From assembly GCA_963816495.1 (NCBI GenBank), contig CAWFKY010000006.1, positions 53,677 through 85,676 of the forward strand: a stretch of DNA of 32,000 nucleotides, written 5' to 3'. The stretch's first letter is position 1. Every line of letters starts with the position of its first letter. The notes under the pieces are model-generated. The model worked only from the letters and a program-made list of their open reading frames with translations. It was not told the origin of the DNA and did no database searches. Origin of the DNA: an uncultured Actinomycetota bacterium. Its GTDB lineage: Bacteria > Actinomycetota > Actinomycetes > Mycobacteriales > Mycobacteriaceae. Positions 1 to 22,232 of this stretch are shown here, in pieces. The position numbers and the translations under genes were made by a program.

Positions 1-123
1 TGTGAGCTCTCCAACGGCGAAGCCAAGAACAACCGAGCCGTTTGCGACCTCGACCTCCTCGACGCCGAGAATCTCTTGGTTGCCAGCTTCAAACGACTCG
101 AGTTGTATCCCTACGGCGGCTGA
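1..123 (+). CDS. 3' end of an upstream CDS (ends ...LVASFKRLELYPYGG*). Function cannot be assigned from 40 residues. Probably the preceding gene of the synthase operon.
   Basis: Frame 1 is open from the window edge to TGA at 121-123. By my count 31 of 40 codons end in G/C, which is coding-like for this genome. Only 6 nt separate the stop from the GTG at 130. Confidence 0.45.
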   Translation, partial: CELSNGEAKNNRAVCDLDLLDAENLLVASFKRLELYPYGG

Positions 124-129
124 GTCGCC

Positions 130-3100
130 GTGAATTTTGAGCCCATTGCGATTGTCGGTCAGGGCTGCGTCCTTCCCGGAGGCCTGAACCCCGACGAGTT
201 ATGGGCGACGGTGCGCGACGGTCGCGACGCGCTCGGCGCAGCGCATCCGGATTATTGGGGGGTATCCCCGGCACGCGTACTGCAAGACCGGCAGGACGCG
301 TCCTACCTCGACCACACGTGGTCTGATCGCGGTGGATATGTGCGCGGGTTTGACGACGCTTTCGATCCCCGTGGTCTCCTGCTCGACGCCGACGAATTCG
401 ACGGCCTCGATCCCCTATACCTGTGGGTAGTTGACGCGGCCCGTCAAGCGCTGGACAGCGCCGGCTGGAGCGCCGGTGCAATCCCGGGTTCAGCCGGGGT
501 TGTTCTCGGCAACTTGAGCTATCCGACGAACAGCATGATCGACCTGGCTGAAAAGGTCTGGCGCGGTGGCGAACACGGGCTTGACTGGCGAAATCGTTTC
601 GTCTCCGGGCTGCCGGCCCATATCGTCGCCAACGCATTGGGATTGACCGCAGGAGCTACGGCCCTCGATGCCGCATGCGCCTCGTCCTTGTATGCGATCA
701 AGCTGGCGTGCGATCGGCTGCACGACCACACCGCGGACGTCATGTTGGCGGGGGGTGTCAACGGCGCCAGCGACTTGCTGCTCCATGTCGGCTTCAGTGC
801 ATTGCAGGCCCTGAGCCGCTCCGGCCAATCGCGCCCCTTCCACCAAGGCGCGGACGGATTGGTACCTGCCGAGGGCGCGGCCGTTCTGGTGCTGCGGAGA
901 CTGCAAGACGCAATCGCCGACGAGAACACCATTTTGGGCGTCATCCGGGGCGTCGGTCTGAGCAACGACGGCCGGGGACGCGGTCTGCTCGTACCCTCGC
1001 AAGAGGGTCAAGAGCGCGCGATGCGGCTCGCCTACGAAATGGCCGGACTTGAGCCGCGCGACATCTCGCTCGTCGAGTGCCACGCCACTGGAACCTCACG
1101 CGGCGACCTGACCGAACTGGTCAGCATGGCAAGCATCTTCGCCGGCCTCGCGGACATACCCATCGGATCCCTGAAATCCAATCTGGGACACTCCATCACA
1201 GCCTCCGGTGCCGCGGGAGCCATCAAGGTGCTCGCGGCGATGCGCGCGGGCGTACGTCCCCCCACGCTGCACGTCGACGACCCGCTACCTTTCATCGCCG
1301 AGTCCCCATTCCGTCTGCTCACCGCGGCCGAACCCTGGGAATGTGACGGGCCACGTCGCGCCGCGATCAACAACTTCGGATTCGGTGGCAATAACGCCCA
1401 CCTCCTGCTCGAAGAATGGATCGAGCCCACCGACAAGCGGGACACTCGCCCGGGAAGGCCGATAACCGAACCTCGAACCGACGATGACATCGCGATCGTG
1501 GGACTCAGCCTGCTGGTGGGTGACGGATGCGAAACCGCTTCCGTCGCAGACCATCTGATGGCGGGCCAGCCGATCCCCAGCCGCGACCGCGGCGGCGCAC
1601 TCGGTGTAAGGATGGCCGAGATCTGCCTCGACCTGACCCAGACCCGTTTTCCGCCAGTCGATCTCAAACAAACCCAGCCGCAGCAACTCGCGCTGCTGGG
1701 CGCCGCTCTCAACATCGACGAGCTCATCAAAGGGCTGCCTCCGGACAGAACCAGCGTCATCGTTGGGATGGGTTGCGATGCCGAAGTGACGCGATTCGGA
1801 GTGCGCTGGCGATTGGCCGACGAGATCGACGACCCCGAGGCGTTGGCGACAGCCCGCGATGATGTCGTCCAAGGGTGGTCGACCGCCGGCGTGGTGGGCG
1901 CCATGCCGAACGTTGTGGCCAATCGGTTGAACAGTCAGTTCGACTTGCGCGGGCCAAGTTTCACGGTATCCAGAGAAGAGCTCTCCGGGACCACAGCCCT
2001 CGAGCTGGCCGCGCGCGCATTACGGCGGGGAGAGATCGACGCCGCCGTGGTCGGTGCGGTGGACCTCAGCTGCGAACCAGTACACGAAGGAGCGGCGCGT
2101 GCGTTGCTCCGACCGGACGAGCAGCTACCTGGCGACGCCGCGATTGTGCTGGTACTCAAACGCGCCGACGATGCCCGCCGTGACGGCGACACAATTCTGG
2201 CCACGCTGCCCGCCGATCAGACTCCACAAGGTGAGTGCCTGCACCTGGGCACCGCGCCAGGCGCGTTGAACCTCTCACCGCTACTGGGCCACGCCCATGC
2301 CGCATCGGGTCTGCTGCACGTTGCCGCCGGCGCGCTCTACGGGCTGCTGGAGGTTTGGCCCGATGGCGAACTGTGGACAGCTCAAAAGCGCGCTGTCGTC
2401 GTTGCGCTCAACGCCTTGGCGGGCCAGGAACAACACATCGTGCTGGTACCACCCGTTGCCGGACATCGCGACGCCGACGAGCTCACCGCCTTGCTCTCCC
2501 CCACCGGCCGAAACCAAACGGGGAAACCCGCGTTGTTGTATTTCCCGGCTCACCTGTCTCCGGTTCGGCTCCCGAGTCACGTTCTGGCTACTGAAGATTC
2601 AGCGTCAGAACCAGATGACCAGCCGGCCTACGTCGCGGAGCCCGTACCGATTTCCGCCGGAGTTACCAGCAGTATCGATCCCCCGCCGGTGCCGATCCGC
2701 ACGGACGCACCGAGATACCAGACCAAGACCTCCCGACTGGAGCAACCCATGACACACCTGCCGGTTCCGCCAGCGCTGCCCAAAGTCGCCGAGGCATTGG
2801 CGCGCGTTCCGCTGGGCGACGACCTGGCCGGGCAAATGCCACCGGAGCCACTGTCGATCGCTGTTGACCTTGATTCCCGAAAGGCCCGCGACACAACGGC
2901 TCACGTGGGCGCTGGCAACGGTCTCGGTGCACCCGACACATTGCCGGAAAAGCCGCAGACGCCACCGAAGAATGAGCCGAGCGACCCGAAACCACCTACC
3001 CACAACCAAGTCATAAAGGTCGACTATTTGCCGGACGGAGGCGCCTACCGGACGATCCAACCCGCGAGGCCCGCCGACAAAGAGGTGCCGAAGCCGACAG

Positions 3101-4515
3101 TCAAGCGTGACCCGGTAGGCCTCACGCTCGACAAGGCCGGCCTGAACGTGCACGCCTCGGGCAAGATTTCAGAGATCTACGGTCCGGCGTTCACCGTGCA
3201 AGACGACTACCTCCGCCAGGTGCGGATGCCCGAACCGCCGCTGTTGCTGGCGGATCGGCTGCTGGGCATCGACGCCGAGCCGGGTAAGGCCGGCAAGGGA
3301 ACGCTGTGGACCGAAACCGATGTCACCGCCGACGCGTGGTGGCTGCATCAGGGGCGGATGCCGGCCGGAATCATGATCGAAGCCGGGCAGGCCGACCTCA
3401 TGCTCATCTCCTGGATGGGTGCGGACTTCGCCAACAAGAGCGATCGGGTGTACCGGCTCCTGGGCTGCGAAGTGACCTATCTGGGGGGCTTGCCCGAGAT
3501 CGGCGACACCCTGCGCTTCGATATCCACGTCGACGGCCACGCCCGTCAGGGCGCTATCCGCATGTTCTTCTTCCACTACGACTGCACGATCGACGGCGTC
3601 GAGCGGATGTCCATGCGCAACGGCCAGGCCGGATTCTTCTCCGACGAAGAGCTGGCCGCGTCCGGCGGAATCCTCTGGCGCCCCGAGGATGAGACCGTCG
3701 ACGGCCCGATGGAACCCATGCCGGCGCAAACGTCGCGCACCTCGTTGCAGCGCGCCGACCTCGACGCGATGGCGGCCGGAGAAATCTTCCACACCTTCGG
3801 CCCCGGCTTCGAGCGCGCCGCCAGCCACACCCGCCCGCCGATCATCTCGGGCGGCGACATGCTGTTCGTCGACGAGGTCACCCAGCTGGACTTCACCGGC
3901 GGCCCCTGGGGTCGGGGCTACCTGCGCGCGGTCTCGCACGTGACCCCCGAAACCTGGTATTTCGACGGTCATTTCAAGAACGACCCCTGCATGCCCGGCA
4001 CACTGATGTTCGAGGGCACGATGCAGACGATGGCGATCTACATGACCGCCCTCGGCATGACCATGGGATGCGACGGGTGGCGCTTCGAGCCCGTACCGTT
4101 CGAGACATACAAGTTGGTCTGCCGCGGACAGGTCACGCCGCAATCGCGCGAGGTAGTCTACGAGGTCTTCGTGCGCGAGGTCATCGCCGGGCCCGAGCCC
4201 ACGCTCTTCGCCGACTTACTCGTCACCGTCGACGGATTGCCCGCTTTCCATTGCGGCCGAATGGGATTGCGGCTCTCTCCCGGCTGCCCGATGGACATGG
4301 GCCTGAAAGAGCTGGTGGGCTATGTCGAGCCCAAGCCCGTCGCCGAAGGCCACGGAGTCAAATTCGACCTCACAGGCGATGCTCGCCTGCGCCGTCGGCA
4401 AGCCCTCCCTGGCCGTCGGCCCGCTCTACGAGAAGTTCGATACCCACCGCAGGGTCGCCCGGCTCCCCGGTCCGCCGTATCACTTCATGTCCCGGGTCAC
4501 CGAGGTCGTCGGTGA
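130..4515 (+). CDS. Synthase fragment 1: KS, CLF, Pro-rich linker, pseudo-DH, FabA-type DH. Meaningful sequence ends near 4378.
   Basis: KS catalytic triad: Cys in DAACASSLYA (codon 676-678), His in ECHATGT (1081-1083), His in KSNLGHS (1189-1191). The second KS-like domain (about 1486-2454) has FTVSREELSG where the Cys motif should be, so it is CLF-like. Pro-rich low-complexity linker at about 2527-3114. PfaC-type pseudo-DH: ISEIYGPAF..VRMPEPPLLLADRL..GQADLMLISWMG. FabA-like active site: DGHFKNDPCMPGTLMFEG (His codon 3970-3972). After ...GVKFDLTGD the translation becomes RLRRRQALPGRRPALRE. Confidence 0.85.
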   Translation: MNFEPIAIVGQGCVLPGGLNPDELWATVRDGRDALGAAHPDYWGVSPARVLQDRQDASYLDHTWSDRGGYVRGFDDAFDPRGLLLDADEFDGLDPLYLWVVDAARQALDSAGWSAGAIPGSAGVVLGNLSYPTNSMIDLAEKVWRGGEHGLDWRNRFVSGLPAHIVANALGLTAGATALDAACASSLYAIKLACDRLHDHTADVMLAGGVNGASDLLLHVGFSALQALSRSGQSRPFHQGADGLVPAEGAAVLVLRRLQDAIADENTILGVIRGVGLSNDGRGRGLLVPSQEGQERAMRLAYEMAGLEPRDISLVECHATGTSRGDLTELVSMASIFAGLADIPIGSLKSNLGHSITASGAAGAIKVLAAMRAGVRPPTLHVDDPLPFIAESPFRLLTAAEPWECDGPRRAAINNFGFGGNNAHLLLEEWIEPTDKRDTRPGRPITEPRTDDDIAIVGLSLLVGDGCETASVADHLMAGQPIPSRDRGGALGVRMAEICLDLTQTRFPPVDLKQTQPQQLALLGAALNIDELIKGLPPDRTSVIVGMGCDAEVTRFGVRWRLADEIDDPEALATARDDVVQGWSTAGVVGAMPNVVANRLNSQFDLRGPSFTVSREELSGTTALELAARALRRGEIDAAVVGAVDLSCEPVHEGAARALLRPDEQLPGDAAIVLVLKRADDARRDGDTILATLPADQTPQGECLHLGTAPGALNLSPLLGHAHAASGLLHVAAGALYGLLEVWPDGELWTAQKRAVVVALNALAGQEQHIVLVPPVAGHRDADELTALLSPTGRNQTGKPALLYFPAHLSPVRLPSHVLATEDSASEPDDQPAYVAEPVPISAGVTSSIDPPPVPIRTDAPRYQTKTSRLEQPMTHLPVPPALPKVAEALARVPLGDDLAGQMPPEPLSIAVDLDSRKARDTTAHVGAGNGLGAPDTLPEKPQTPPKNEPSDPKPPTHNQVIKVDYLPDGGAYRTIQPARPADKEVPKPTVKRDPVGLTLDKAGLNVHASGKISEIYGPAFTVQDDYLRQVRMPEPPLLLADRLLGIDAEPGKAGKGTLWTETDVTADAWWLHQGRMPAGIMIEAGQADLMLISWMGADFANKSDRVYRLLGCEVTYLGGLPEIGDTLRFDIHVDGHARQGAIRMFFFHYDCTIDGVERMSMRNGQAGFFSDEELAASGGILWRPEDETVDGPMEPMPAQTSRTSLQRADLDAMAAGEIFHTFGPGFERAASHTRPPIISGGDMLFVDEVTQLDFTGGPWGRGYLRAVSHVTPETWYFDGHFKNDPCMPGTLMFEGTMQTMAIYMTALGMTMGCDGWRFEPVPFETYKLVCRGQVTPQSREVVYEVFVREVIAGPEPTLFADLLVTVDGLPAFHCGRMGLRLSPGCPMDMGLKELVGYVEPKPVAEGHGVKFDLTGDARLRRRQALPGRRPALREVRYPPQGRPAPRSAVSLHVPGHRGRR

Positions 4516-5500
4516 GCTCGGTGTTCCCAAGGCCGGCACGTCTGTAATCGCCGAGTACGACGTCCCCAGCGACGCCTGGTATTTCGCCGAGAACAAGGGC
4601 GCGAACGGAAAGCCGACGATGCCCAACGCGGTCCTCATGGAGATCGCGCTGCAACCATGCGGCTGGGTCGGCGCCTACGCCGGCTGTCCACTGGACTTCG
4701 ACGTGGACCTGTTCTTCCGCAACCTCGACGGAACGGGTGTGCAGCACCGCGAGATCACGCCCTCGACCGGGACATTGCGGATAAGGGCCACGCTGAAGAA
4801 CATCGCCCAGGCCGGTGGAACCATCATCGCGACCTTCGACGGCGAGATCTCCGATGACGACGGACCCGTCTACACCTACGACACGGTTTTCGGATACTTC
4901 CGCCTCGAAGCGTTGCAGCAGCAGGTGGGGCTGCCGGTCAGCGACGAGCAGCGCGCGCTGCTAGAGCTTCCGTGCTCGGCGCCGGTCGTCGACCTTCGCA
5001 CCCGCCCGGCGGAATTCTTCGGCCCAGGGCCTCGGTTGGCCGACCCGATGCTGTTGATGATGGACCGGGTCACCGGCCGCTGGCCCACCGACGGCGCCGC
5101 CGGGCTGGGCCGGTGGCGCGGCGTCAAGGACGTCAATCCCGACGAGTGGTTCTTCAAGGCCCACTTCTATCGGGATCCGGTGCAGCCCGGATCGTTGGGC
5201 ATCGAGATGCTGCTCCAGCTACTCCAATTCGCGATGCTCGATCTCGGATTGGGCGAGGAGTTGGGGCCGTCGGCGCGCTTCGAGCCGGTGGCGCTGCAAG
5301 ACCCGATCACGTGGCGTTACCGCGGTCAGATCGTGCCGACCAACAAGCAGATCACGGCGCAACATCGAGATCATCCGCATCGAGCGCGGCGCCGACGGCG
5401 TCCTCGCCGTGGCCGAAGCCTCCCTGTGGAACGACGGAATCCGGATCTACAGCGCCTCCAACCTGGGCATGCGTATCACCGGCAGTGCGTCAGACGATGA
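4322..5500 (+). CDS. Synthase fragment 2: second pseudo-DH plus FabA-type DH unit. Meaningful sequence runs about 4379-5359.
   Basis: From 4379 the frame reads MLACAVGKPSLAVGPLYEKFDTHRRVARLPGPPYHFMSRVTEV, the PfaC-type DH lead-in motif. Second FabA-like active site: FFKAHFYRDPVQPGSLGIEMLLQ (His codon 5162-5164). The tail after ...PTNKQITA is Arg-rich nonsense. The first 19 codons of the listed ORF (MSSPSPSPKATESNSTSQA) are probably not translated. Confidence 0.8.
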   Translation: MSSPSPSPKATESNSTSQAMLACAVGKPSLAVGPLYEKFDTHRRVARLPGPPYHFMSRVTEVVGELGVPKAGTSVIAEYDVPSDAWYFAENKGANGKPTMPNAVLMEIALQPCGWVGAYAGCPLDFDVDLFFRNLDGTGVQHREITPSTGTLRIRATLKNIAQAGGTIIATFDGEISDDDGPVYTYDTVFGYFRLEALQQQVGLPVSDEQRALLELPCSAPVVDLRTRPAEFFGPGPRLADPMLLMMDRVTGRWPTDGAAGLGRWRGVKDVNPDEWFFKAHFYRDPVQPGSLGIEMLLQLLQFAMLDLGLGEELGPSARFEPVALQDPITWRYRGQIVPTNKQITAQHRDHPHRARRRRRPRRGRSLPVERRNPDLQRLQPGHAYHRQCVRR

Positions 5501-7670
5501 GCCGCAGGTCCAAACCGGCTCGGCCACGACGGCGACTCCGGCTGAGCCTTGCGAGTCATCTGAGGCGCCGGCGACGACGCTGGAGACGACCCTCGATCCC
5601 GCGAACGACACCTGGGTCGTCGATCACTGCCCCTCGTATGTAATCCCTTCGCTGCCAATGATGTCGGTGCTGGACCTGTTCGCCCAGGCGGCAACTCGTG
5701 CGGCGGCACCGGCCAAGGCCGTCGAAATCAACGACCTACGGCTGCTTCGCTGGATTGTCGTCGATTCGCCGACGAGACTGCGGGTGGTCGTCGAGCCGAC
5801 CGAGCCCGGACGTTTTGAGGGCCGCTTGGAGGTCTGGCGTGATGCACGACGAGCCGAGTTCTCGCGGTGGGAGACACACGCGGAGGCGGTGATCGTCACC
5901 GCGGACGGCTACGAAGGCGAGCCGGCAGCTCCTGCCCCGCTGAAAGATGCTGTCCCTTATGCCAACCCGTATGACGGCACGGTGTTCCACGGGCCCGCGT
6001 TCGCAACCCTGATGGACGGCGCCCGGATAGGCCGCAACGGTTCGTCCGGGACGCTTGCGGTTGATCGGTGCAAGGTCCCCGTGGGCCAGCAACATCCCGG
6101 TCTCCTCGATGGTGCGTTTCACATCGTTCCGCACACCGCGATGAACGTATGGACCACGAACAGTTCGGCTGTCGCGTCGTATCTCGACGCCACGGACCCG
6201 ACCGTCGGGTTTCCGCGTCGCGTCATTTGGGCGCGGTTCTACGGCGAGCCTCCCGAGGACGGGACGGTCGACGTGGAGACCCGGTTTGTCGGGTTCGACG
6301 ACGCGGACGGCCGCATGCCGATCATCGATCTGTGGCTCTACGTCGCGGGCAAGCCGTGGGCCTATCTCCGCATGGTCGAAATCCTGCTGGACAAAGGACC
6401 TCTCGCTGCGGTCAGCGGCCCCCAGCGGCGCGCCTTCGTCGGTGAGCGACGCGCGGTGCCCGGGGTGTCGTTGAGCGATCGAGAGGGCCCCGGGGTGGTG
6501 ACGCTCAGTTCCGCGCGTGCGGCGACCCAGGAGTGGTTCAAAGGGACCCTGAAAGCGGTGTACGACACCGACAGCCAACGGGATGCGCTGATTGCCGACA
6601 TCGCGATCAAAGAAGCGGTCGCCGACGCCGCCCACAGCGCGATCCACCCATCGCAGGTTCACGTCGTCGATGGTCAGGCGAGCTGTCCGGCGCTGCCGCT
6701 GGAGCGCATCGCCGTCGAGCTGGAACAACCTTCTCCGCACGCATGTCGTGCGAGCGCGTCGTTACAGACGGACTGGCAACCACTGCGCAGCTGGTACAAC
6801 GACAAGCTGGGAATGCAGCAAGGCGGATTCGGAGATCTCCTGCACTGGGCCTTGCTGTCGCGCTATGTCAGGCACATCGTGGTCGCGGATCCAGCCGCGA
6901 TGACGGCGATTCGCGGGCGCCCCGTGCTGTTACTGGGCAACCACCAAGTGCAGATCGAGTCGATCCTGGGCACCACGGTCGCGTCGTGGCTGACCGGCAC
7001 GCAGGTCGCGACGATCGCCCATGCCAAACATGAAACCCGTTGGGTTGGCGTTCTTTTGCGGCTTGTGGAAGCGGTGACGGGCAGCGAACTGGGCCACATC
7101 CGATACTTCGACCAGCAGAATCCGCAGCAGTTCATCAGCCTGGTCGAAGAAATCAAGCGCGATGTCGCCGCCCGCGGAGTGTCAACGATGGTGCATGCCG
7201 ACGGAACGCGATACGTGCGCTCCGGTCAGCGCGTCGAAAGGCTCACCTCCACGCTCTTGGATATGGCGGTGGAGCTGTCGATGCCGATCGTGCCGCTGTA
7301 CTTCGCGGGAGGCCTGCCCGAGGAACCGTTGGCCGGCAAGCTCGAGGTGCCTTATCGCCAGGCCGCGCAGGACTACATCTTTGGGCGCCCGATCATGCCC
7401 GAAGAGCTGACCGCGCTGCTCTACCCGGATCGTCGACGCTACGTCATCGACGCCATCAACGCGCTGGCACCATTCAGCGACGCGCCGCACGAGCCAAATT
7501 ACGCGGCGGAGAACCGGATTGCTGCTGCGTTCCCCGGTGCTTCCCCGCTGGAGTCGATATGGGGTTGCATCGAAGACGCCCTGGATGCCCTACCCGTGGA
7601 CTGGCGAACCACGATCGGCCGCGACGAATGGATGGCGGCTAGATCGGCCCAACAGCACACCACCACCTAG
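5409..7670 (+). CDS. Synthase fragment 3: Ser/Thr/Pro linker, PKS-type DH, C-terminal AGPAT/PlsC-family acyltransferase. The frame is meaningful from about 5361.
   Basis: This frame already reads NIEIIRIERGADGVLAV upstream of the listed GTG. DH motifs: VVDHCPSYVIPSLP (His codon 5625-5627), FHGPAF, LLDGAFH. Acyltransferase motifs: LLLGNHQVQIES (His 6942-6944, Glu 6957-6959), HADGTR (about 7194-7211), PIVPLYFAGG. Stop TAG at 7668-7670. Confidence 0.8.
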   Translation: MAEASLWNDGIRIYSASNLGMRITGSASDDEPQVQTGSATTATPAEPCESSEAPATTLETTLDPANDTWVVDHCPSYVIPSLPMMSVLDLFAQAATRAAAPAKAVEINDLRLLRWIVVDSPTRLRVVVEPTEPGRFEGRLEVWRDARRAEFSRWETHAEAVIVTADGYEGEPAAPAPLKDAVPYANPYDGTVFHGPAFATLMDGARIGRNGSSGTLAVDRCKVPVGQQHPGLLDGAFHIVPHTAMNVWTTNSSAVASYLDATDPTVGFPRRVIWARFYGEPPEDGTVDVETRFVGFDDADGRMPIIDLWLYVAGKPWAYLRMVEILLDKGPLAAVSGPQRRAFVGERRAVPGVSLSDREGPGVVTLSSARAATQEWFKGTLKAVYDTDSQRDALIADIAIKEAVADAAHSAIHPSQVHVVDGQASCPALPLERIAVELEQPSPHACRASASLQTDWQPLRSWYNDKLGMQQGGFGDLLHWALLSRYVRHIVVADPAAMTAIRGRPVLLLGNHQVQIESILGTTVASWLTGTQVATIAHAKHETRWVGVLLRLVEAVTGSELGHIRYFDQQNPQQFISLVEEIKRDVAARGVSTMVHADGTRYVRSGQRVERLTSTLLDMAVELSMPIVPLYFAGGLPEEPLAGKLEVPYRQAAQDYIFGRPIMPEELTALLYPDRRRYVIDAINALAPFSDAPHEPNYAAENRIAAAFPGASPLESIWGCIEDALDALPVDWRTTIGRDEWMAARSAQQHTTT

Positions 7671-15870: not shown

Positions 15871-16614
15871 ATGCATCTCAGGCTGCCAGGCCCGCTTGGC
15901 CGTCGGACCACTCACCCAAACCGGCTGTTGCTGCGTGCTGATGCCGGAACCGGCTTTTACGGCAACCAACAGGCCCGGCTGCTCAAGATTTACCTTGGCG
16001 CGACGACATTCCTCTATACCTACGGTGTTGTGTTCACCTTGTTTCCGATCCACCGAGGATTCAAGGGGGCGCATCCAATCGGGGGCATCGTGGCGATTGT
16101 CCTTGGTCTGGCGGCACTGCTGTGGCTTGCCGCTCGGCCCGACAAAACCGCGGCCTGCACGGATCCGCTGACGGGCTTGCTCAACCGCGCCGGCTGGGAG
16201 ATCGGGACGGTCGATCTGCTGACGCGATCACGTTCTTGGACAGCCACAATCACGGTCATCGCATTGGACATCGACAACCTCAAACAGATCAACGACATCG
16301 AGGGACACCTGGCGGGGGACGAACATCTGATCAGTTGTGCGGAACGCTGGCGGGAATTGCTTCCCGCCAACGCCGTCCTGGCCGGGCTCGGTGGCGACGA
16401 GTTCGCGGTGTGCGTCGCCGAGCGGGCGGGCTCGACGCCGACCTCAGCGGAGCTCTTCGTCGCCGGCGTCCGGCTGCGCACCCCGGAGACGAGCATCGGA
16501 ACGGCGGTCCACAGCGGCGACGCTGCCGATCCTGCCGACCCAGCCGACATAGCCGCGTTATACGCGAGCGCCGACGCCAGTCTCTACGCTGCCAAGTGCG
16601 AGAGATCGCGCTAG
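15871..16614 (+). CDS. Membrane-anchored GGDEF-domain diguanylate cyclase.
   Basis: Motifs: LTGLLNR...ALDIDNLKQINDIEGHLAGD...GLGGDEFAV (GGDEF codons 16390-16404) and ADASLYAAK. Two hydrophobic N-terminal spans. ATG 15871 is preceded by GGAGAGTCGAGGA. The ORF is open from 15712, but that would overlap hrpA. Confidence 0.85.
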   Translation: MHLRLPGPLGRRTTHPNRLLLRADAGTGFYGNQQARLLKIYLGATTFLYTYGVVFTLFPIHRGFKGAHPIGGIVAIVLGLAALLWLAARPDKTAACTDPLTGLLNRAGWEIGTVDLLTRSRSWTATITVIALDIDNLKQINDIEGHLAGDEHLISCAERWRELLPANAVLAGLGGDEFAVCVAERAGSTPTSAELFVAGVRLRTPETSIGTAVHSGDAADPADPADIAALYASADASLYAAKCERSR

Positions 16615-19089: not shown

Positions 19090-20682
19090 TCAGGGCATGT
19101 AATCGAAGTATGTCGTCCCTTGACCGCTGGGGGTGTAGGAGATGTACACCGGTCCCTGCGCGAAGGGCTCGAATCCGGTGTTCATCGAGCCGCCCGACAC
19201 GCTAGTTGGGCTGTTCGCGGCCGTCGTCGTGTAGTGGTACAGCTCTGTGCCGTTTGGGTCGTAGACCGTGATGAGCGACCCCGTCGGCACCGATCCGACG
19301 GACGACGGGATGGTCCCGGTCACGCCGCCGGAGTCGATGAACGAGCCAGGAACAGCCACCTTAGTCCCTCCATCGATTGATACCTGCAGGTAGCTGATTG
19401 GCGCCCCGTCAGTCGAGTGCACGGCGGGCAGCGGGTTGGTGTTAGCGAACTGCAGATAACCCTGAGGTTCGTTGATCAGCACACCGTTGTTCATGGTGCT
19501 CGGCAACCCCGAGACCGGTGAGGCGCCGGGGCTCGGACCCCCCGCGTTGACCCCGATCCCCATGATCCCGGCCGCGCCGTTGCCGCCGGCGAAGTTTCCG
19601 AACGGTGTCGGGAAACTCAAGACGACGACGTCAACGGGGATCGAGGAGACGATGCCATTGCCGAAGTTCACCGTCGTGTCGAACTTGACGAAAAAGTACG
19701 TCAGCCCCCCGCTGTACGCGCCCATCCCGAGCCCGGTGGGCAGGCCGAGCTTGAACAGCCCGACGTCCCTGAGCGGGATGACCAGGCCGGTAGATCCGGT
19801 GTCGACCAAGACGGGCACGCTGGGTCCGCCGTTGACGGAGACGTCCACCACGGGTTCAGTGGTTTGGTATATCTGCATCGACACCCCGTTGGTCACCCCG
19901 GTGGTCCCGGTTTGCCCGCCGGCACCCCAGCTGCCGAACAATCGGCCGGGGACGCCTCCGGCTCCGCCGGCGACGTTGGGTCCGCCGTCGCCGCCGTGCC
20001 CGCCCGAACCGATGAAGAAGCCCCCGCTGCCGCCGGCGCCGCCGACGCCACCGGTCCCGCCGCCTCCAAGACCTCCGCCCTGGCCGCCGTTCCCGCCGTT
20101 ACCGAGCAGGGTCCCGCCGGCACCGCCGGCCCCGCCGGCGGCGCCGGTCCCACCGTTCCCGCCGTTACCCCCGTTGCCGACCAGCCCGGCGTCGCCGCCG
20201 TTGCCGCCGGCCATTCCGGTCCCACCCGAGCCGCCGTTGCCGCCGTTGCCGACGATCCACCCGCCGTCTCCGCCGGCGTCTCCGCTGCCCGGGGCTGCGT
20301 TGGCGCCGTTGCCGGCCAGGGGCCGCCCCGTCAGGTCCTTCCACGGCGAAAACCACTGGATCCCCGAGGCCGCGCTCTCCACAGCCTGCAGCGGCGAGGC
20401 GTTGGCGGCCTCCGCGGCCGCATACGCGCCTTCGGCGCCGCTCAACGTTTGCACAAACTGGGCATGAAACGCGCTGGCCTGCCCGCCGAGCGCCTGAAAG
20501 GCTTGGCCGTGCCCGGAAAACAGCGCCGCCACCGCGGTAGATACCTCGTCAGCGGCGGCAGCCACCAGCCCGGTGGTCGGAACAGCCGCCGCGGCGTGCG
20601 CCGCATCCAGCGCCGAACCGATGCCCCGCAAATCCGCCGTCGCTGACGCCAGTAATTGGGGGGTCACGTCCAGGAGTGACAC
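19090..20682 (-). CDS. PE_PGRS protein with a C-terminal pepsin-like aspartic protease domain (PecA / PE_PGRS35 type).
   Basis: GTG start (MSLLDVTPQLL...), PE domain with YAAAE, PGRS stretch. Protease motifs: VLVDTGSTGLVIP (Asp codon 19801-19803) and FIDSGGVTG (Asp codon 19333-19335). GAGGGGG lies upstream of the start. Confidence 0.9.
   Translation of the reverse strand: MSLLDVTPQLLASATADLRGIGSALDAAHAAAAVPTTGLVAAAADEVSTAVAALFSGHGQAFQALGGQASAFHAQFVQTLSGAEGAYAAAEAANASPLQAVESAASGIQWFSPWKDLTGRPLAGNGANAAPGSGDAGGDGGWIVGNGGNGGSGGTGMAGGNGGDAGLVGNGGNGGNGGTGAAGGAGGAGGTLLGNGGNGGQGGGLGGGGTGGVGGAGGSGGFFIGSGGHGGDGGPNVAGGAGGVPGRLFGSWGAGGQTGTTGVTNGVSMQIYQTTEPVVDVSVNGGPSVPVLVDTGSTGLVIPLRDVGLFKLGLPTGLGMGAYSGGLTYFFVKFDTTVNFGNGIVSSIPVDVVVLSFPTPFGNFAGGNGAAGIMGIGVNAGGPSPGASPVSGLPSTMNNGVLINEPQGYLQFANTNPLPAVHSTDGAPISYLQVSIDGGTKVAVPGSFIDSGGVTGTIPSSVGSVPTGSLITVYDPNGTELYHYTTTAANSPTSVSGGSMNTGFEPFAQGPVYISYTPSGQGTTYFDYMP
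19897..20325 (-). repeat. PGRS coding repeat.
   Basis: GGxGGx periodicity. The antisense strand gives the 331-aa poly-Pro ORF 19472..20467. Confidence 0.8.
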
Positions 20683-20774: not shown

Positions 20775-22232
20775 TCAGTCGAACTGCAGTGTCCCGTTGG
20801 TGTAGTCGAGGTAAATCGGCGTGTTTGCGAACGCTTCATACCCGGTGTTCTGGCTGCCCGAGGTGATGACCGTCGGGGCGTTGGTGCTGTTCACGACGTA
20901 CGAATAGACCGGGTTGGAGTAGCCGGGTGCATAGACGCTGATTTCTGTTCCATTCGGCACGGAGCTCGTCTGGCCCGGCAATTCGGACTGCAGGATGGTT
21001 CCGTACACGCCACCGGCATCGACGATCGTGCTCGGGTTCGGCGTGGTGACCGTGGTGGTGGCGCCCGGGTTGGTGACTACGTAAGTCAGGCCGCTGGTGG
21101 TGGACCCGCCGGGGACGGTGGCTACGGGTGTGTACGGGTTGGGCCCGAAGGTCAGCTGTCCGGCCGGCTCGTTGATGAGCACACCTTGACCGAGGCTGCC
21201 TGGCAACGCCGTGAGCGGGCTGCTGGTGTTTGGGCCCCCGGTGTTCGTCCCGACACCCAGAATCCCTACCGCGCCGTCGGATGAAGCAAAGCTAGAGAAC
21301 GACCCCGGGAATGAGAAGAAGACCGCGTCAATGGTGGTCGGCGAGGTGACGATCCCATTCCCGAAATTCACGGTGCCGTTGAACTTGAGGTAGAAGTAGG
21401 TGTCTCCGCCGCTGTAGGCGCCGACACCAATCCCCGTCGGCAGCCCCAGGTGCTGTAATCCGATGTCCTTCAACGGGATCACCAGACCGGTCGATCCGGT
21501 GTCGACCAGCAAGGGCACACTCGATCCGCCGTTGACCGAGGCGTGCACGATCGGCTCGGTGGTTCCAACCATGGTCAGCGGCACCGTCGCGTTCACGTTG
21601 GTACCGCCGGCTAGCCCGCTGGATCCGTTGGTGCCGAGCAGGGCGCCGCCGGTGCCTGCTGCGCCACCGATACCGACGGATCCGGTCGAAGCGGCCGCTC
21701 CTCCGGTGCCCCCGTTTCCGCCGACGCCGATCAGCCCGGCGTTACCGCCGTTGCCGCCGGCCTGCCCGGTCGCGCCTGAGCCGCCATTGCCGCCGTTGCC
21801 GAAGATCCACCCGCTGTCGCCGCCGGCCGCTCCAGTGCCCGCGGCTCCGTGAGCGCCATTGCCCACCAGTGGGCGTCCCGTCAGCGTCTGCCACGGTGAA
21901 AAGACCGCCAGGCTCTGCGCATCGGCTACCACGGCCTGCAGCGGCGACGCGTTGGCGGCCTCGGCGGCCGAGTAGGCGCTTTGCGCGCCGCTCAGGGCCT
22001 GGACGAACTGGCGGTGAAATGCGCTGGCTTGCGCGCTGAGCGTGTGAAAGGCCTGACCATAGTCGCTGAACAGCGCCGTCACCGTCGCCGAGACTTCGTC
22101 CGCGCCGGCGGCCGCCAGCCCCGTGGTCGGAGCGGCGGCCGCGGCGTGCGCCGCATTCAGCTCCGCACCGATGCGCTGCAAATCCGCTGCCGACGACTCC
22201 AGCAGCCCAGGAACCACGTTAAGAAGCGACAC
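20775..22232 (-). CDS. PE_PGRS protein with a C-terminal pepsin-like aspartic protease domain; tandem paralogue of the previous gene.
   Basis: GTG start (MSLLNVVPGLL...), YSAAE, short PGRS. Protease motifs: LLVDTGSTGLVIP (Asp codon 21501-21503) and a second site reading IVDAGGVYG (Asp codon 21018-21020, DAG instead of DSG/DTG). Confidence 0.9.
   Translation of the reverse strand: MSLLNVVPGLLESSAADLQRIGAELNAAHAAAAAPTTGLAAAGADEVSATVTALFSDYGQAFHTLSAQASAFHRQFVQALSGAQSAYSAAEAANASPLQAVVADAQSLAVFSPWQTLTGRPLVGNGAHGAAGTGAAGGDSGWIFGNGGNGGSGATGQAGGNGGNAGLIGVGGNGGTGGAAASTGSVGIGGAAGTGGALLGTNGSSGLAGGTNVNATVPLTMVGTTEPIVHASVNGGSSVPLLVDTGSTGLVIPLKDIGLQHLGLPTGIGVGAYSGGDTYFYLKFNGTVNFGNGIVTSPTTIDAVFFSFPGSFSSFASSDGAVGILGVGTNTGGPNTSSPLTALPGSLGQGVLINEPAGQLTFGPNPYTPVATVPGGSTTSGLTYVVTNPGATTTVTTPNPSTIVDAGGVYGTILQSELPGQTSSVPNGTEISVYAPGYSNPVYSYVVNSTNAPTVITSGSQNTGYEAFANTPIYLDYTNGTLQFD
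21597..21875 (-). repeat. PGRS coding repeat.
   Basis: GGxGGx periodicity. An antisense poly-Pro ORF lies at 21463..21852. Confidence 0.75.

Follow-up and report, generated by a model that had tools for sequence, protein, structure and literature searches.

We analyzed a 32,000-nucleotide stretch of DNA (the window, in whose coordinates all positions are given) from an uncultured soil organism that its genes mark as a Mycobacterium. Our results indicate that the gene at positions 130–7670 of the plus strand is very probably pfa3, a pfaC-like gene. It would belong to a three-gene cluster of the Type L or myxobacterial type, encoding a secondary-lipid synthase that resembles the synthases of polyunsaturated fatty acids (PUFAs). 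The domain content of the gene, its family membership and the partner genes in relatives were observed directly, and by homology the synthase would work as its characterized counterparts do. The cluster type is a catalogued one, known in Actinobacteria and noted in Mycobacterium. The combination found here, a protein that lacks an internal acyltransferase domain (AT) and carries a polyketide-synthase-type dehydratase (DH4), is a minor variation of it.

As assembled, the gene is not a single open reading frame (ORF). It is spread over three overlapping frames (130–4515, 4322–5500, and 5409–7670). The first begins with the initiation codon of pfa3, GTG at 130, and the second and third with ATG at 4322 and GTG at 5409. 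A tblastn search with an intact orthologue as query puts the two changes of frame close to 4370 and 5362, and DNA alignments against nine related loci show that each is caused by a single extra base in the window. The first insertion (TCA[C]AGG, position 4373 of the plus strand) leads from frame 1 to frame 2, the second (GCAA[C]ATC, position 5363, same strand) from frame 2 to frame 3. Both are private to the window: they are absent from the intact orthologues and from L018 and L020, two of the related loci and assemblies found for comparison (labeled L001–L020). If bases 4373 and 5363 are removed, 2512 stop-free codons result, with every motif present. Because of the two insertions, the assembled gene yields only a protein with a ketosynthase (KS) alongside a chain-length factor (CLF), plus a first FabA-type dehydratase unit (DH2), without the second such unit (DH3), DH4 and the C-terminal acyltransferase. 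The first frame encodes a piece of 1461 amino acids (aa), the third a piece of 753 aa. The window copy therefore lacks the continuous reading frame of a PfaC or Pfa3 gene. The original prediction, made from the letters of the window alone, had suggested a survey of related mycobacteria for intact copies, and such copies exist: nine orthologous mycobacterial loci were checked, and in six of them the gene is whole, encoding 2449–2520 aa.

Domain content of the restored protein

All domains described here are encoded on the plus strand. The KS (130–1449) matches PF00109, PF02801, and PF16197 over residues 4–440; in the Pfam scan, PF00109 (E 2e-66) and PF02801 (E 1e-32) cover residues 4–382. Its catalytic triad is intact, with Cys183 in DAACASS (nucleotides 676–678), His318 in ECHATGT, and His354 in NLGHS. 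The CLF-like KS that follows (1492–2499) is a second ketoacyl-synt stretch, in which the active-site cysteine is replaced by a glutamate that aligns with Cys183 of the KS in a pairwise alignment of the two domains. Next comes a proline-rich linker (2512–3117), which occupies the place that the AT has in Pfa3 proteins of the Aetherobacter/Archangium type. The Pfam scan gave no Acyl_transf_1 match in the linker, and residues 698–1411 of the Archangium protein have no counterpart in the window gene. Nor did the scan find any match to an AT, an acyl carrier protein (ACP; PP-binding), a ketoreductase (KR), or a thioesterase (TE) anywhere in the window polypeptide.

Two repeats of a pseudo-dehydratase and a FabA-type dehydratase occupy the middle of the protein. 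The first (3118–4299; DH2, a dehydratase/isomerase) matches PF07977 in two stretches (E 1e-43) and has the motif HFKNDPCMPG; the second (4376–5486; DH3) also matches PF07977 in two stretches (E 4e-36). The histidines of the H-F-x-x-D-P-x-x-P-G motifs are located at nucleotides 3970 and 5162. FabA structures were matched at E 1e-15 in a sequence-profile search of the PDB, and FabA matches are present in the NCBIfam scan, too. The earlier assignment of 3127–5358 to FabA-like hot-dog folds thus withstood profile searches that could have overturned it. Downstream of DH3 lies DH4 (5577–6401), with its histidine at 5625, the motifs FHGPAF and DGAFH, a PKS_DH_N match of 29.8 bits (cut-off 27), and matches to the borrelidin and CurK dehydratase structures (E 5e-4 to 5e-3). 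It is followed by an interdomain region (6402–6728) that is conserved in the homologue alignment and matches no family. Hence, the protein has what distinguishes PfaC and Pfa3: a KS with a Cys-His-His triad, a CLF without the cysteine, and two FabA-type dehydratases, each preceded by a pseudo-dehydratase. The KS triad, the Cys-less CLF, both dehydratase repeats, the polyketide-synthase-type dehydratase, and the acyltransferase motifs all lie where the original prediction had placed them.

The protein ends with an acyltransferase of the PlsC or lysophospholipid acyltransferase (LPLAT) type, similar to 1-acylglycerol-3-phosphate acyltransferases (AGPATs; 6729–7670 including the stop codon). It contains the four motifs of this superfamily: I, NHQVQIE (His at 6942); II, YFDQ (7104–7115); III, ADGTR (7197–7211); and IV, PIVPL (7284–7298). 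The match to the PlsC family, PF01553, depends on the segment searched: it reaches 21.5 bits on the whole 753-aa piece, below the cut-off of 23, and 23.6 bits on the 326-aa domain alone (6690–7667; E 5e-5, profile positions 12–131 of 132). PF01553 is also matched by 13 of 20 homologues of the domain. An AlphaFold2 model of the domain, built on 20 sequences, has a mean predicted local distance difference test score (pLDDT) of 80 and a predicted template modeling score (pTM) of 0.81. Its best two matches in a Foldseek search of the PDB are squash glycerol-3-phosphate acyltransferase (1K30, probability 1.00) and the lipid A acyltransferase LpxM (5KN7, probability 0.98), both with low TM-scores (0.37–0.38) and both members of the HX4D acyltransferase superfamily. 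These results place 6816–7510, as the original prediction did, in the family of PlsC/LPLAT acyltransferases, by a margin that is small but with agreement between the methods.

The domain differs from PlsC in several respects. The motifs of PlsC in Escherichia coli are NHQNNYD, LIDR, PEGTR, and PIIPV, and the arginine of motif II (F-x-x-R) has been implicated in binding the phosphate of the acceptor. In the window domain, the aspartate of motif I is replaced by glutamate and the arginine of motif II by glutamine; in addition, it is fused to a megasynthase and its similarity to PlsC is at threshold level. The glutamate (NHQxxxE, or H-X4-E instead of H-X4-D) is found in 103 of 104 family representatives and is invariant in the homologue alignment. 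Motif II reads F-D/E-R in most of the family and F-D-Q in a mycobacterial subclade that includes the window (YFDQ). Motif III is EGTR or DGTR across the family; its G, T, and R and the prolines of motif IV are nearly invariant, so that the window domain agrees with PlsC at motifs III and IV. A search of 1.84 billion representatives with the domain returned 571 clusters, 488 of them at E ≤ 1e-10. In the full-length proteins listed (about 2000–3000 aa), the domain forms the extreme C-terminus; many other listed matches are shorter fragments. Judged by its sequence relatives, the domain is a distinct, megasynthase-linked branch of the LPLAT superfamily, because it is C-terminal in these clusters wherever the protein is full-length.

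Cluster type and partner genes

Two features have been used to define Type L clusters: a pfaD homologue lies at the 5′ end, and pfaC is a fusion that ends in an acyltransferase ([KS-CLF-DH2-AT]; Shulse and Allen 2011, PMC3098273). They were listed in Streptomyces coelicolor A3(2), S. ghanaensis, Nakamurella multipartita, Plesiocystis, Saccharophagus, and Sorangium; no Mycobacterium is in that survey (PMC3098273). Both defining features are found here. The LPLAT domain fused to the C-terminus of a PfaC core is seen in the window gene itself, and the pfaD homologue in its relatives.

Of the neighboring cluster genes, the window shows only the junction between pfa2 and pfa3: positions 1–123 (plus strand) hold the 3′ end of a pfaA-like pfa2, 40 codons and a stop. 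The translation is identical to the C-terminus of a 2212-aa protein in L018, a 97%-identical relative, and is also conserved in L001, L002, L008, and L014. According to Pfam, the L018 protein contains KS, AT, PP-binding, KR, and PS-DH domains. A scan of species-representative genomes found 16 loci. Among them are M. numidiamassiliense AB215, M. rhizamassiliense AB57, Mycobacterium sp. E1747, and several soil metagenome-assembled genomes (MAGs) from Microflora Danica (MFD), at 68–81% identity. Archangium, Propionivibrio, Desulfobacteraceae, and Micromonosporaceae have copies that are more distant; a Propionivibrio MAG is the nearest nonmycobacterial match seen (54–56% identity).

In the intact orthologous loci, a gene for roughly 550 aa is followed by one for 2088–2547 aa and then by pfa3. 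The roughly 550-aa proteins of L001 and L002 pass the PfaD model TIGR02814 (586–606 bits, cut-off 449), which identifies them as the enoyl reductase (ER). The upstream protein of M. numidiamassiliense (L002; 2147 aa; KS-AT-ACP-KR-PS-DH in Pfam) passes the PfaA model TIGR02813 with 1470 bits (cut-off 1010). The PfaA-like proteins of the orthologous loci contain two to five tandem ACP motifs. The order ER, PfaA-like, Pfa3 is seen in L001, L002, L004, L008, L009, and L014. Ordinary modular polyketide synthase (PKS) genes upstream would have spoken against the original prediction; what we find instead is a PfaA-like C-terminus in the window and partners above the PfaA and PfaD cut-offs in the intact loci.

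Three observations on the relatives should be mentioned. Contig NZ_FUEZ01000003.1 of M. numidiamassiliense AB215 has two copies of the pfa locus (L002 and L003), which share 99.95% identity along 15.3 kb and one of which lies at the end of the contig. Either a large segment was duplicated recently or the second copy is an artifact of assembly. In the isolate genome of M. rhizamassiliense AB57 (L005, 15247–15346), pfa3 is split at the DH3/DH4 boundary into a KS-CLF-DH2-DH3 ORF and a DH4-acyltransferase ORF. Considering also that the intact ORF of L018 contains KS-CLF-DH2-DH3 only, the DH4-acyltransferase module may be separable or dispensable. Finally, the homologue in a Micromonosporaceae MAG (L013, 2481–9776) has an internal AT and DH4 and ends without an acyltransferase. 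The terminal domain has therefore been gained or lost independently of the core.

The best-characterized relatives are the Pfa3 proteins of myxobacteria, with the architecture KS-CLF-(AT)-DH2-DH3-(DH4)-AGPAT (PMC4882568, PMC8436480, PMC6731297). That a terminal AGPAT has been described for them, as the original prediction stated, is confirmed by the literature, where this domain is the hallmark of myxobacterial PUFA synthases (PMC4882568, PMC6731297). Sorangium cellulosum So ce56, Aetherobacter spp., and Minicystis rosea share with our locus the order pfa1 (ER), pfa2, pfa3, as read in its intact orthologues, and the layout KS-CLF-[DH′-DH]x2 plus AGPAT. The AT is missing from S. cellulosum Pfa3 (PMC4882568, PMC8436480), and a PKS-like DH4 precedes the AGPAT in M. 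rosea Pfa3 (PMC6731297); the window gene is like the former in having no internal AT and like the latter in having DH4. It differs from all of them in its actinobacterial host, in the combination of no AT with DH4, which is absent among the characterized forms, in YFDQ instead of FFDR, and in its broken frame. A Pfa3-like protein of Archangium is colinear with the window protein (residues 1–727 and 997–2447 are covered by the alignment), with 55% identity in KS-CLF and 46% in DH2-DH3-DH4-AGPAT. It has an AT-containing insert of roughly 710 residues where the window gene has a Pro-rich linker of roughly 270. Its acyltransferase motifs are ANHQVGVES, FFDR, VEGTR, and PIIPV, with NHQxxxES common to both proteins, and the window domain is homologous to the myxobacterial AGPAT domain. 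The marine PfaC proteins (pfaABCD of Shewanella, Photobacterium, and Moritella) have the same KS-CLF-DH′-DH-DH′-DH core and the same need for the tandem ACPs of PfaA and the ER PfaD. Unlike the window gene, they have neither DH4 nor a terminal acyltransferase; the AT is a separate protein, PfaB, and release proceeds via a thioesterase or PlsC in trans (PMC4882568).

One could also argue that pfa3 belongs to a hybrid cluster of PKS, nonribosomal peptide synthetase (NRPS), and PUFA-synthase genes that makes the lipid tail of a specialized metabolite, not a membrane phospholipid. Such hybrids were reported in 2026 for M. fortunisiensis TNTM28, Mycolicibacterium sp. CBMA 234, and M. simulans FB-527 (PMC13291983). 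By their description, they likewise contain PUFA-synthase-like genes in mycobacteria with PE genes nearby, in a poorly conserved spacer between the pfa and the PKS/NRPS genes (PMC13291983). In favor of this explanation, pfa3 of M. numidiamassiliense is followed, 1.7 kb downstream, by a gene for an AMP-binding protein similar to fatty acyl-AMP ligases or CoA ligases (FAAL/CAL). However, the hybrid clusters are linked to PKS, CAL, and NRPS genes, and there is none of these within 24 kb downstream of pfa3 in the window, nor any large PKS or NRPS ORF within 5 kb downstream in L008 or L014. The built-in lipid acyltransferase also favors direct transfer to a lipid. We therefore consider a hybrid cluster unlikely. 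A further reading, as one of the usual modular type I PKSs of mycobacteria (Mas/Pps/Pks13-like), is refuted: although the KS alone partially matches Pks13, Pks2, and generic type I PKS models, these NCBIfam matches are limited to the KS (251–308 bits against cut-offs of 1740–2400), the polypeptide has no AT, ACP, KR, or TE, a Cys-less CLF with tandem FabA-type dehydratases is the PfaC signature, and the partner genes exceed the PfaA and PfaD cut-offs.

Several points weigh against a Type L pfa3 in this organism. The assembled gene is frame-broken, and the pathway may be dead in the source organism. The ER gene and most of pfa2 lie beyond the window, and the completeness of the cluster in the source genome rests on relatives. 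We saw no gene for a phosphopantetheinyl transferase (PPTase; pfaE) in the window, where no search aimed at PPTases was made; the dedicated PPTase gene of such systems is often found away from the cluster. The family match of the acyltransferase is marginal, the domain departs from PlsC at motifs I and II, and the PDB sequence-profile search, which did return FabA and PKS dehydratase structures, did not find a PlsC-like chain. Lastly, literature searches (hglE-KS/PUFA with Mycobacterium; SCO0125–0127) turned up no characterized product of a mycobacterial or other actinobacterial cluster.

State of the gene and its surroundings

Are the two insertions real? We lean slightly towards the answer that they are, which would make pfa3 a pseudogene, inactivated recently in a lineage that can now dispense with the pfa locus. 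Between genes, the window differs from L018 or L020 by seven to eight indels over about 1.2 kb. Across the intact genes that were compared, which amount to about 5.2 kb with L018 and about 3.9 kb with L020, it differs by none. Indels are filtered as selection would filter them. This suggests that the assemblies are accurate in coding DNA and argues against heavy uniform noise. Both frame-breaking 1-bp indels of the window fall into one gene (P about 0.07 under uniform noise). Two further lesions of the window are of a kind that polishing does not produce: hrpA has a private 7-bp deletion, and a GGDEF gene is short of about 99 codons. Furthermore, pfa3 has been lost structurally and independently in the sibling genomes L017 and L019, and insertions at 5705 and 6310 are common to L018 and L020. 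What does not fit a pseudogene is the state of the remaining 2512 codons, which have no further lesion and keep all catalytic motifs intact. The ratio of nonsynonymous to synonymous substitution rates (dN/dS) of about 0.2 means that nearly all divergence accumulated under purifying selection. Both insertions are a nonduplicative C between two As, which is unusual for slippage and like the nontemplated 1-bp insertions of L018.

The alternative, to which we give somewhat less than an even chance, is that the gene is intact in the organism and that a metagenome assembly from Nanopore reads alone introduced the insertions as errors of the consensus. The relatives are MFD MAGs and ENA ‘contig_N’ assemblies, and the MFD assemblies were made from Nanopore reads only, with Flye and one round of Medaka (PMC12313526). 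In L018, a stretch of about 1.6 kb of pfa3 has some 15 single-base indels, most of them insertions, yet substitution density there is normal, dN/dS is 0.25, and the indel-to-substitution ratio is about 0.4, which is why we read this cluster as local consensus noise and not as neutral decay. At 6310, the insertions of L018 and L020 share the site and differ in the base, and in the window a perfect ORF returns once two bases are removed. On the other hand, this provenance is that of the relatives. The other coding DNA aligned between the window and L018 totals about 9 kb (the 5.2 kb of intact genes, and hrpA, where the lesions are 7 and 12 bp long) and contains not a single 1-bp indel, and neither insertion site is in a homopolymer.

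By part of the gene, dN/dS against L018 is 0.20 in the KS, 0.50 in the CLF and linker, 0.06 in DH2, 0.06 in DH3, and about 0.25 in the 3′ part; against L017, it is 0.2 over the last 593 codons. Five of six neighboring genes tested range from 0.06 to 0.21, and the value of 0.92 for the sixth comes from a short WhiB gene in which just four substitutions were counted. If the frameshift lesions are real, they are recent; otherwise, they may be long-read consensus errors. The four tests applied (dN/dS, indel partitioning, three-way sibling comparison, and indel signatures) disagree, and on balance they tip slightly towards real lesions.

Whichever of the two explanations holds, part of the lineage can clearly do without the pfa locus and is losing it. 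L017 has lost the 5′ part of pfa3, with a breakpoint at L017 position 4472 (window-equivalent 5540) beside an IS110-family transposase gene (L017 1584–2603). In L019, only the last ~380 codons of pfa3 remain (breakpoint at window-equivalent 6508), and in L020 both pfa2 and pfa3 are fragmented. L018 retains an intact ORF of 1723 aa; its single-base indels, mostly nontemplated insertions, lie at window-equivalent positions 5258–6846, in the DH4 region. This dense cluster of 1-bp insertions is confined to the DH4 region of pfa3 in L018 and L020, whose other coding DNA is clean. Its probable origin is local noise in the consensus, at a place where a deletion polymorphism perhaps lowers coverage.

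It is very improbable that the breaks are functional, either as programmed +1 frameshifting or as split subunits, and we rejected this explanation. Internal start codons are available at the heads of the second and third frames, and the split in M. rhizamassiliense together with the intact L018 ORF indicates that the canonical PfaC layout may be viable alone. Neither site, however, is conserved in any relative, no clear Shine–Dalgarno sequence precedes the internal starts, and the second break removes the last ~40 residues of DH3, that is, it lies inside the hot-dog fold and not at a domain boundary.

The surroundings of the gene agree with the earlier view of a Mycobacterium as the host. The locus is flanked by genes for PE, PGRS, and PE-PGRS aspartyl-peptidase proteins, and the nearest related loci come from Mycobacterium species. 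The window also codes for PE-PGRS proteins, WhiB paralogues, cutinases, a protein of the cyclopropane-fatty-acyl-phospholipid-synthase family, and an L,D-transpeptidase. There was no sign of plasmid origin; a megablast search of positions 1–8000 against plasmids gave only a 236-bp match in the FabA region, to an Azospirillum replicon.

Convergent with pfa3 and overlapping its stop codon by 4 nucleotides is a gene on the minus strand (7667–9070) for a fusion of PE and PGRS domains with a full-length GH12 glycosyl hydrolase (PF01670). The protein is 99% identical in sibling genomes, with a dN/dS of 0.06. Farther downstream on the minus strand lie two adjacent WhiB-family paralogues (10549–10854 and 11258–11536; about 72–74% identical to each other) and hrpA, which encodes an HrpA-like DEAH helicase (11845–15776). 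The private 7-bp deletion of hrpA, at ~12739, shifts the frame, and a private 12-bp insertion at ~14790 is in frame; the gene is intact in L018 and split at other positions in L019 and L020. The GGDEF-domain gene (about 15871–16611, plus strand) is shorter than in L018 by about 290 bp. Its segment is the most divergent of the region (74–120 mismatches per kb). On the minus strand, two tandem genes (19090–20682 and 20775–22232) encode PE-PGRS proteins with a C-terminal aspartyl-peptidase-like domain, according to a match to PF20729.

Mechanism, acceptor and significance

If the synthase works like its characterized homologues from myxobacteria and marine bacteria, a malonyl-derived chain on the tandem ACPs of Pfa2 would be lengthened iteratively by the KS of that protein and the KS-CLF pair of Pfa3. 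Each round would be processed by the KR, a dehydratase, and the ER acting in trans, and the double-bond pattern would be set by the two FabA-type dehydratase/isomerase units and DH4. The C-terminal LPLAT-type domain would then take the acyl chain from the ACP and esterify a lipid acceptor, presumably 1-acyl-glycerol-3-phosphate. With such an acceptor, release and membrane insertion would be one step.

The original prediction described the protein as the last subunit of a pfa-like lipid pathway that transfers its product directly onto a lysophosphatidic-acid-type acceptor. The first part holds. The second has to be weakened: even in myxobacteria the chain is only ‘presumably’ moved to the 2-position of 1-acylglycerol-3-phosphate (PMC6731297), and the window domain deviates at two canonical positions. 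Since both HX4D and the motif II arginine are absent, the acceptor is uncertain. A more speculative idea, and one we think has a small chance of being right, is that the acyltransferase of the mycobacterial subclade (HX4E, Arg to Gln, with DH4 and without AT) no longer acylates lysophosphatidate. Instead, it might load the unsaturated chain onto a nonphosphorylated, Mycobacterium-specific acceptor such as a glycolipid or a diacylglycerol-type lipid.

The significance of the window gene is modest, because the Type L architecture is catalogued and has already been seen in Actinobacteria and Mycobacterium, and because the copy here is broken. The original prediction knew of no characterized mycobacterial example, and none was found in the literature. 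The kind of gene is less new than it implied, with Type L clusters reported from Actinobacteria in 2011 (PMC3098273) and pfa-like genes from Mycobacterium in 2026 (PMC13291983).

Mycobacterial lipid biology is dominated by the fatty acid synthases FAS-I and FAS-II, mycolates, and multimethyl-branched polyketide lipids. A PUFA or secondary-lipid synthase of the anaerobic type with a built-in lipid acyltransferase falls outside this canon, and none has been characterized in the genus. The window is thus a pointer to intact orthologues in culturable hosts (M. numidiamassiliense AB215, and the split version in M. rhizamassiliense), and the sibling assemblies are a small natural experiment on how a pfa locus gets lost. 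If the acceptor were indeed nonphosphorylated, environmental mycobacteria with intact clusters, such as M. numidiamassiliense, would make an undescribed class of envelope lipids by an oxygen-independent route, and the repeated loss in the lineage of the window would mark a niche shift.

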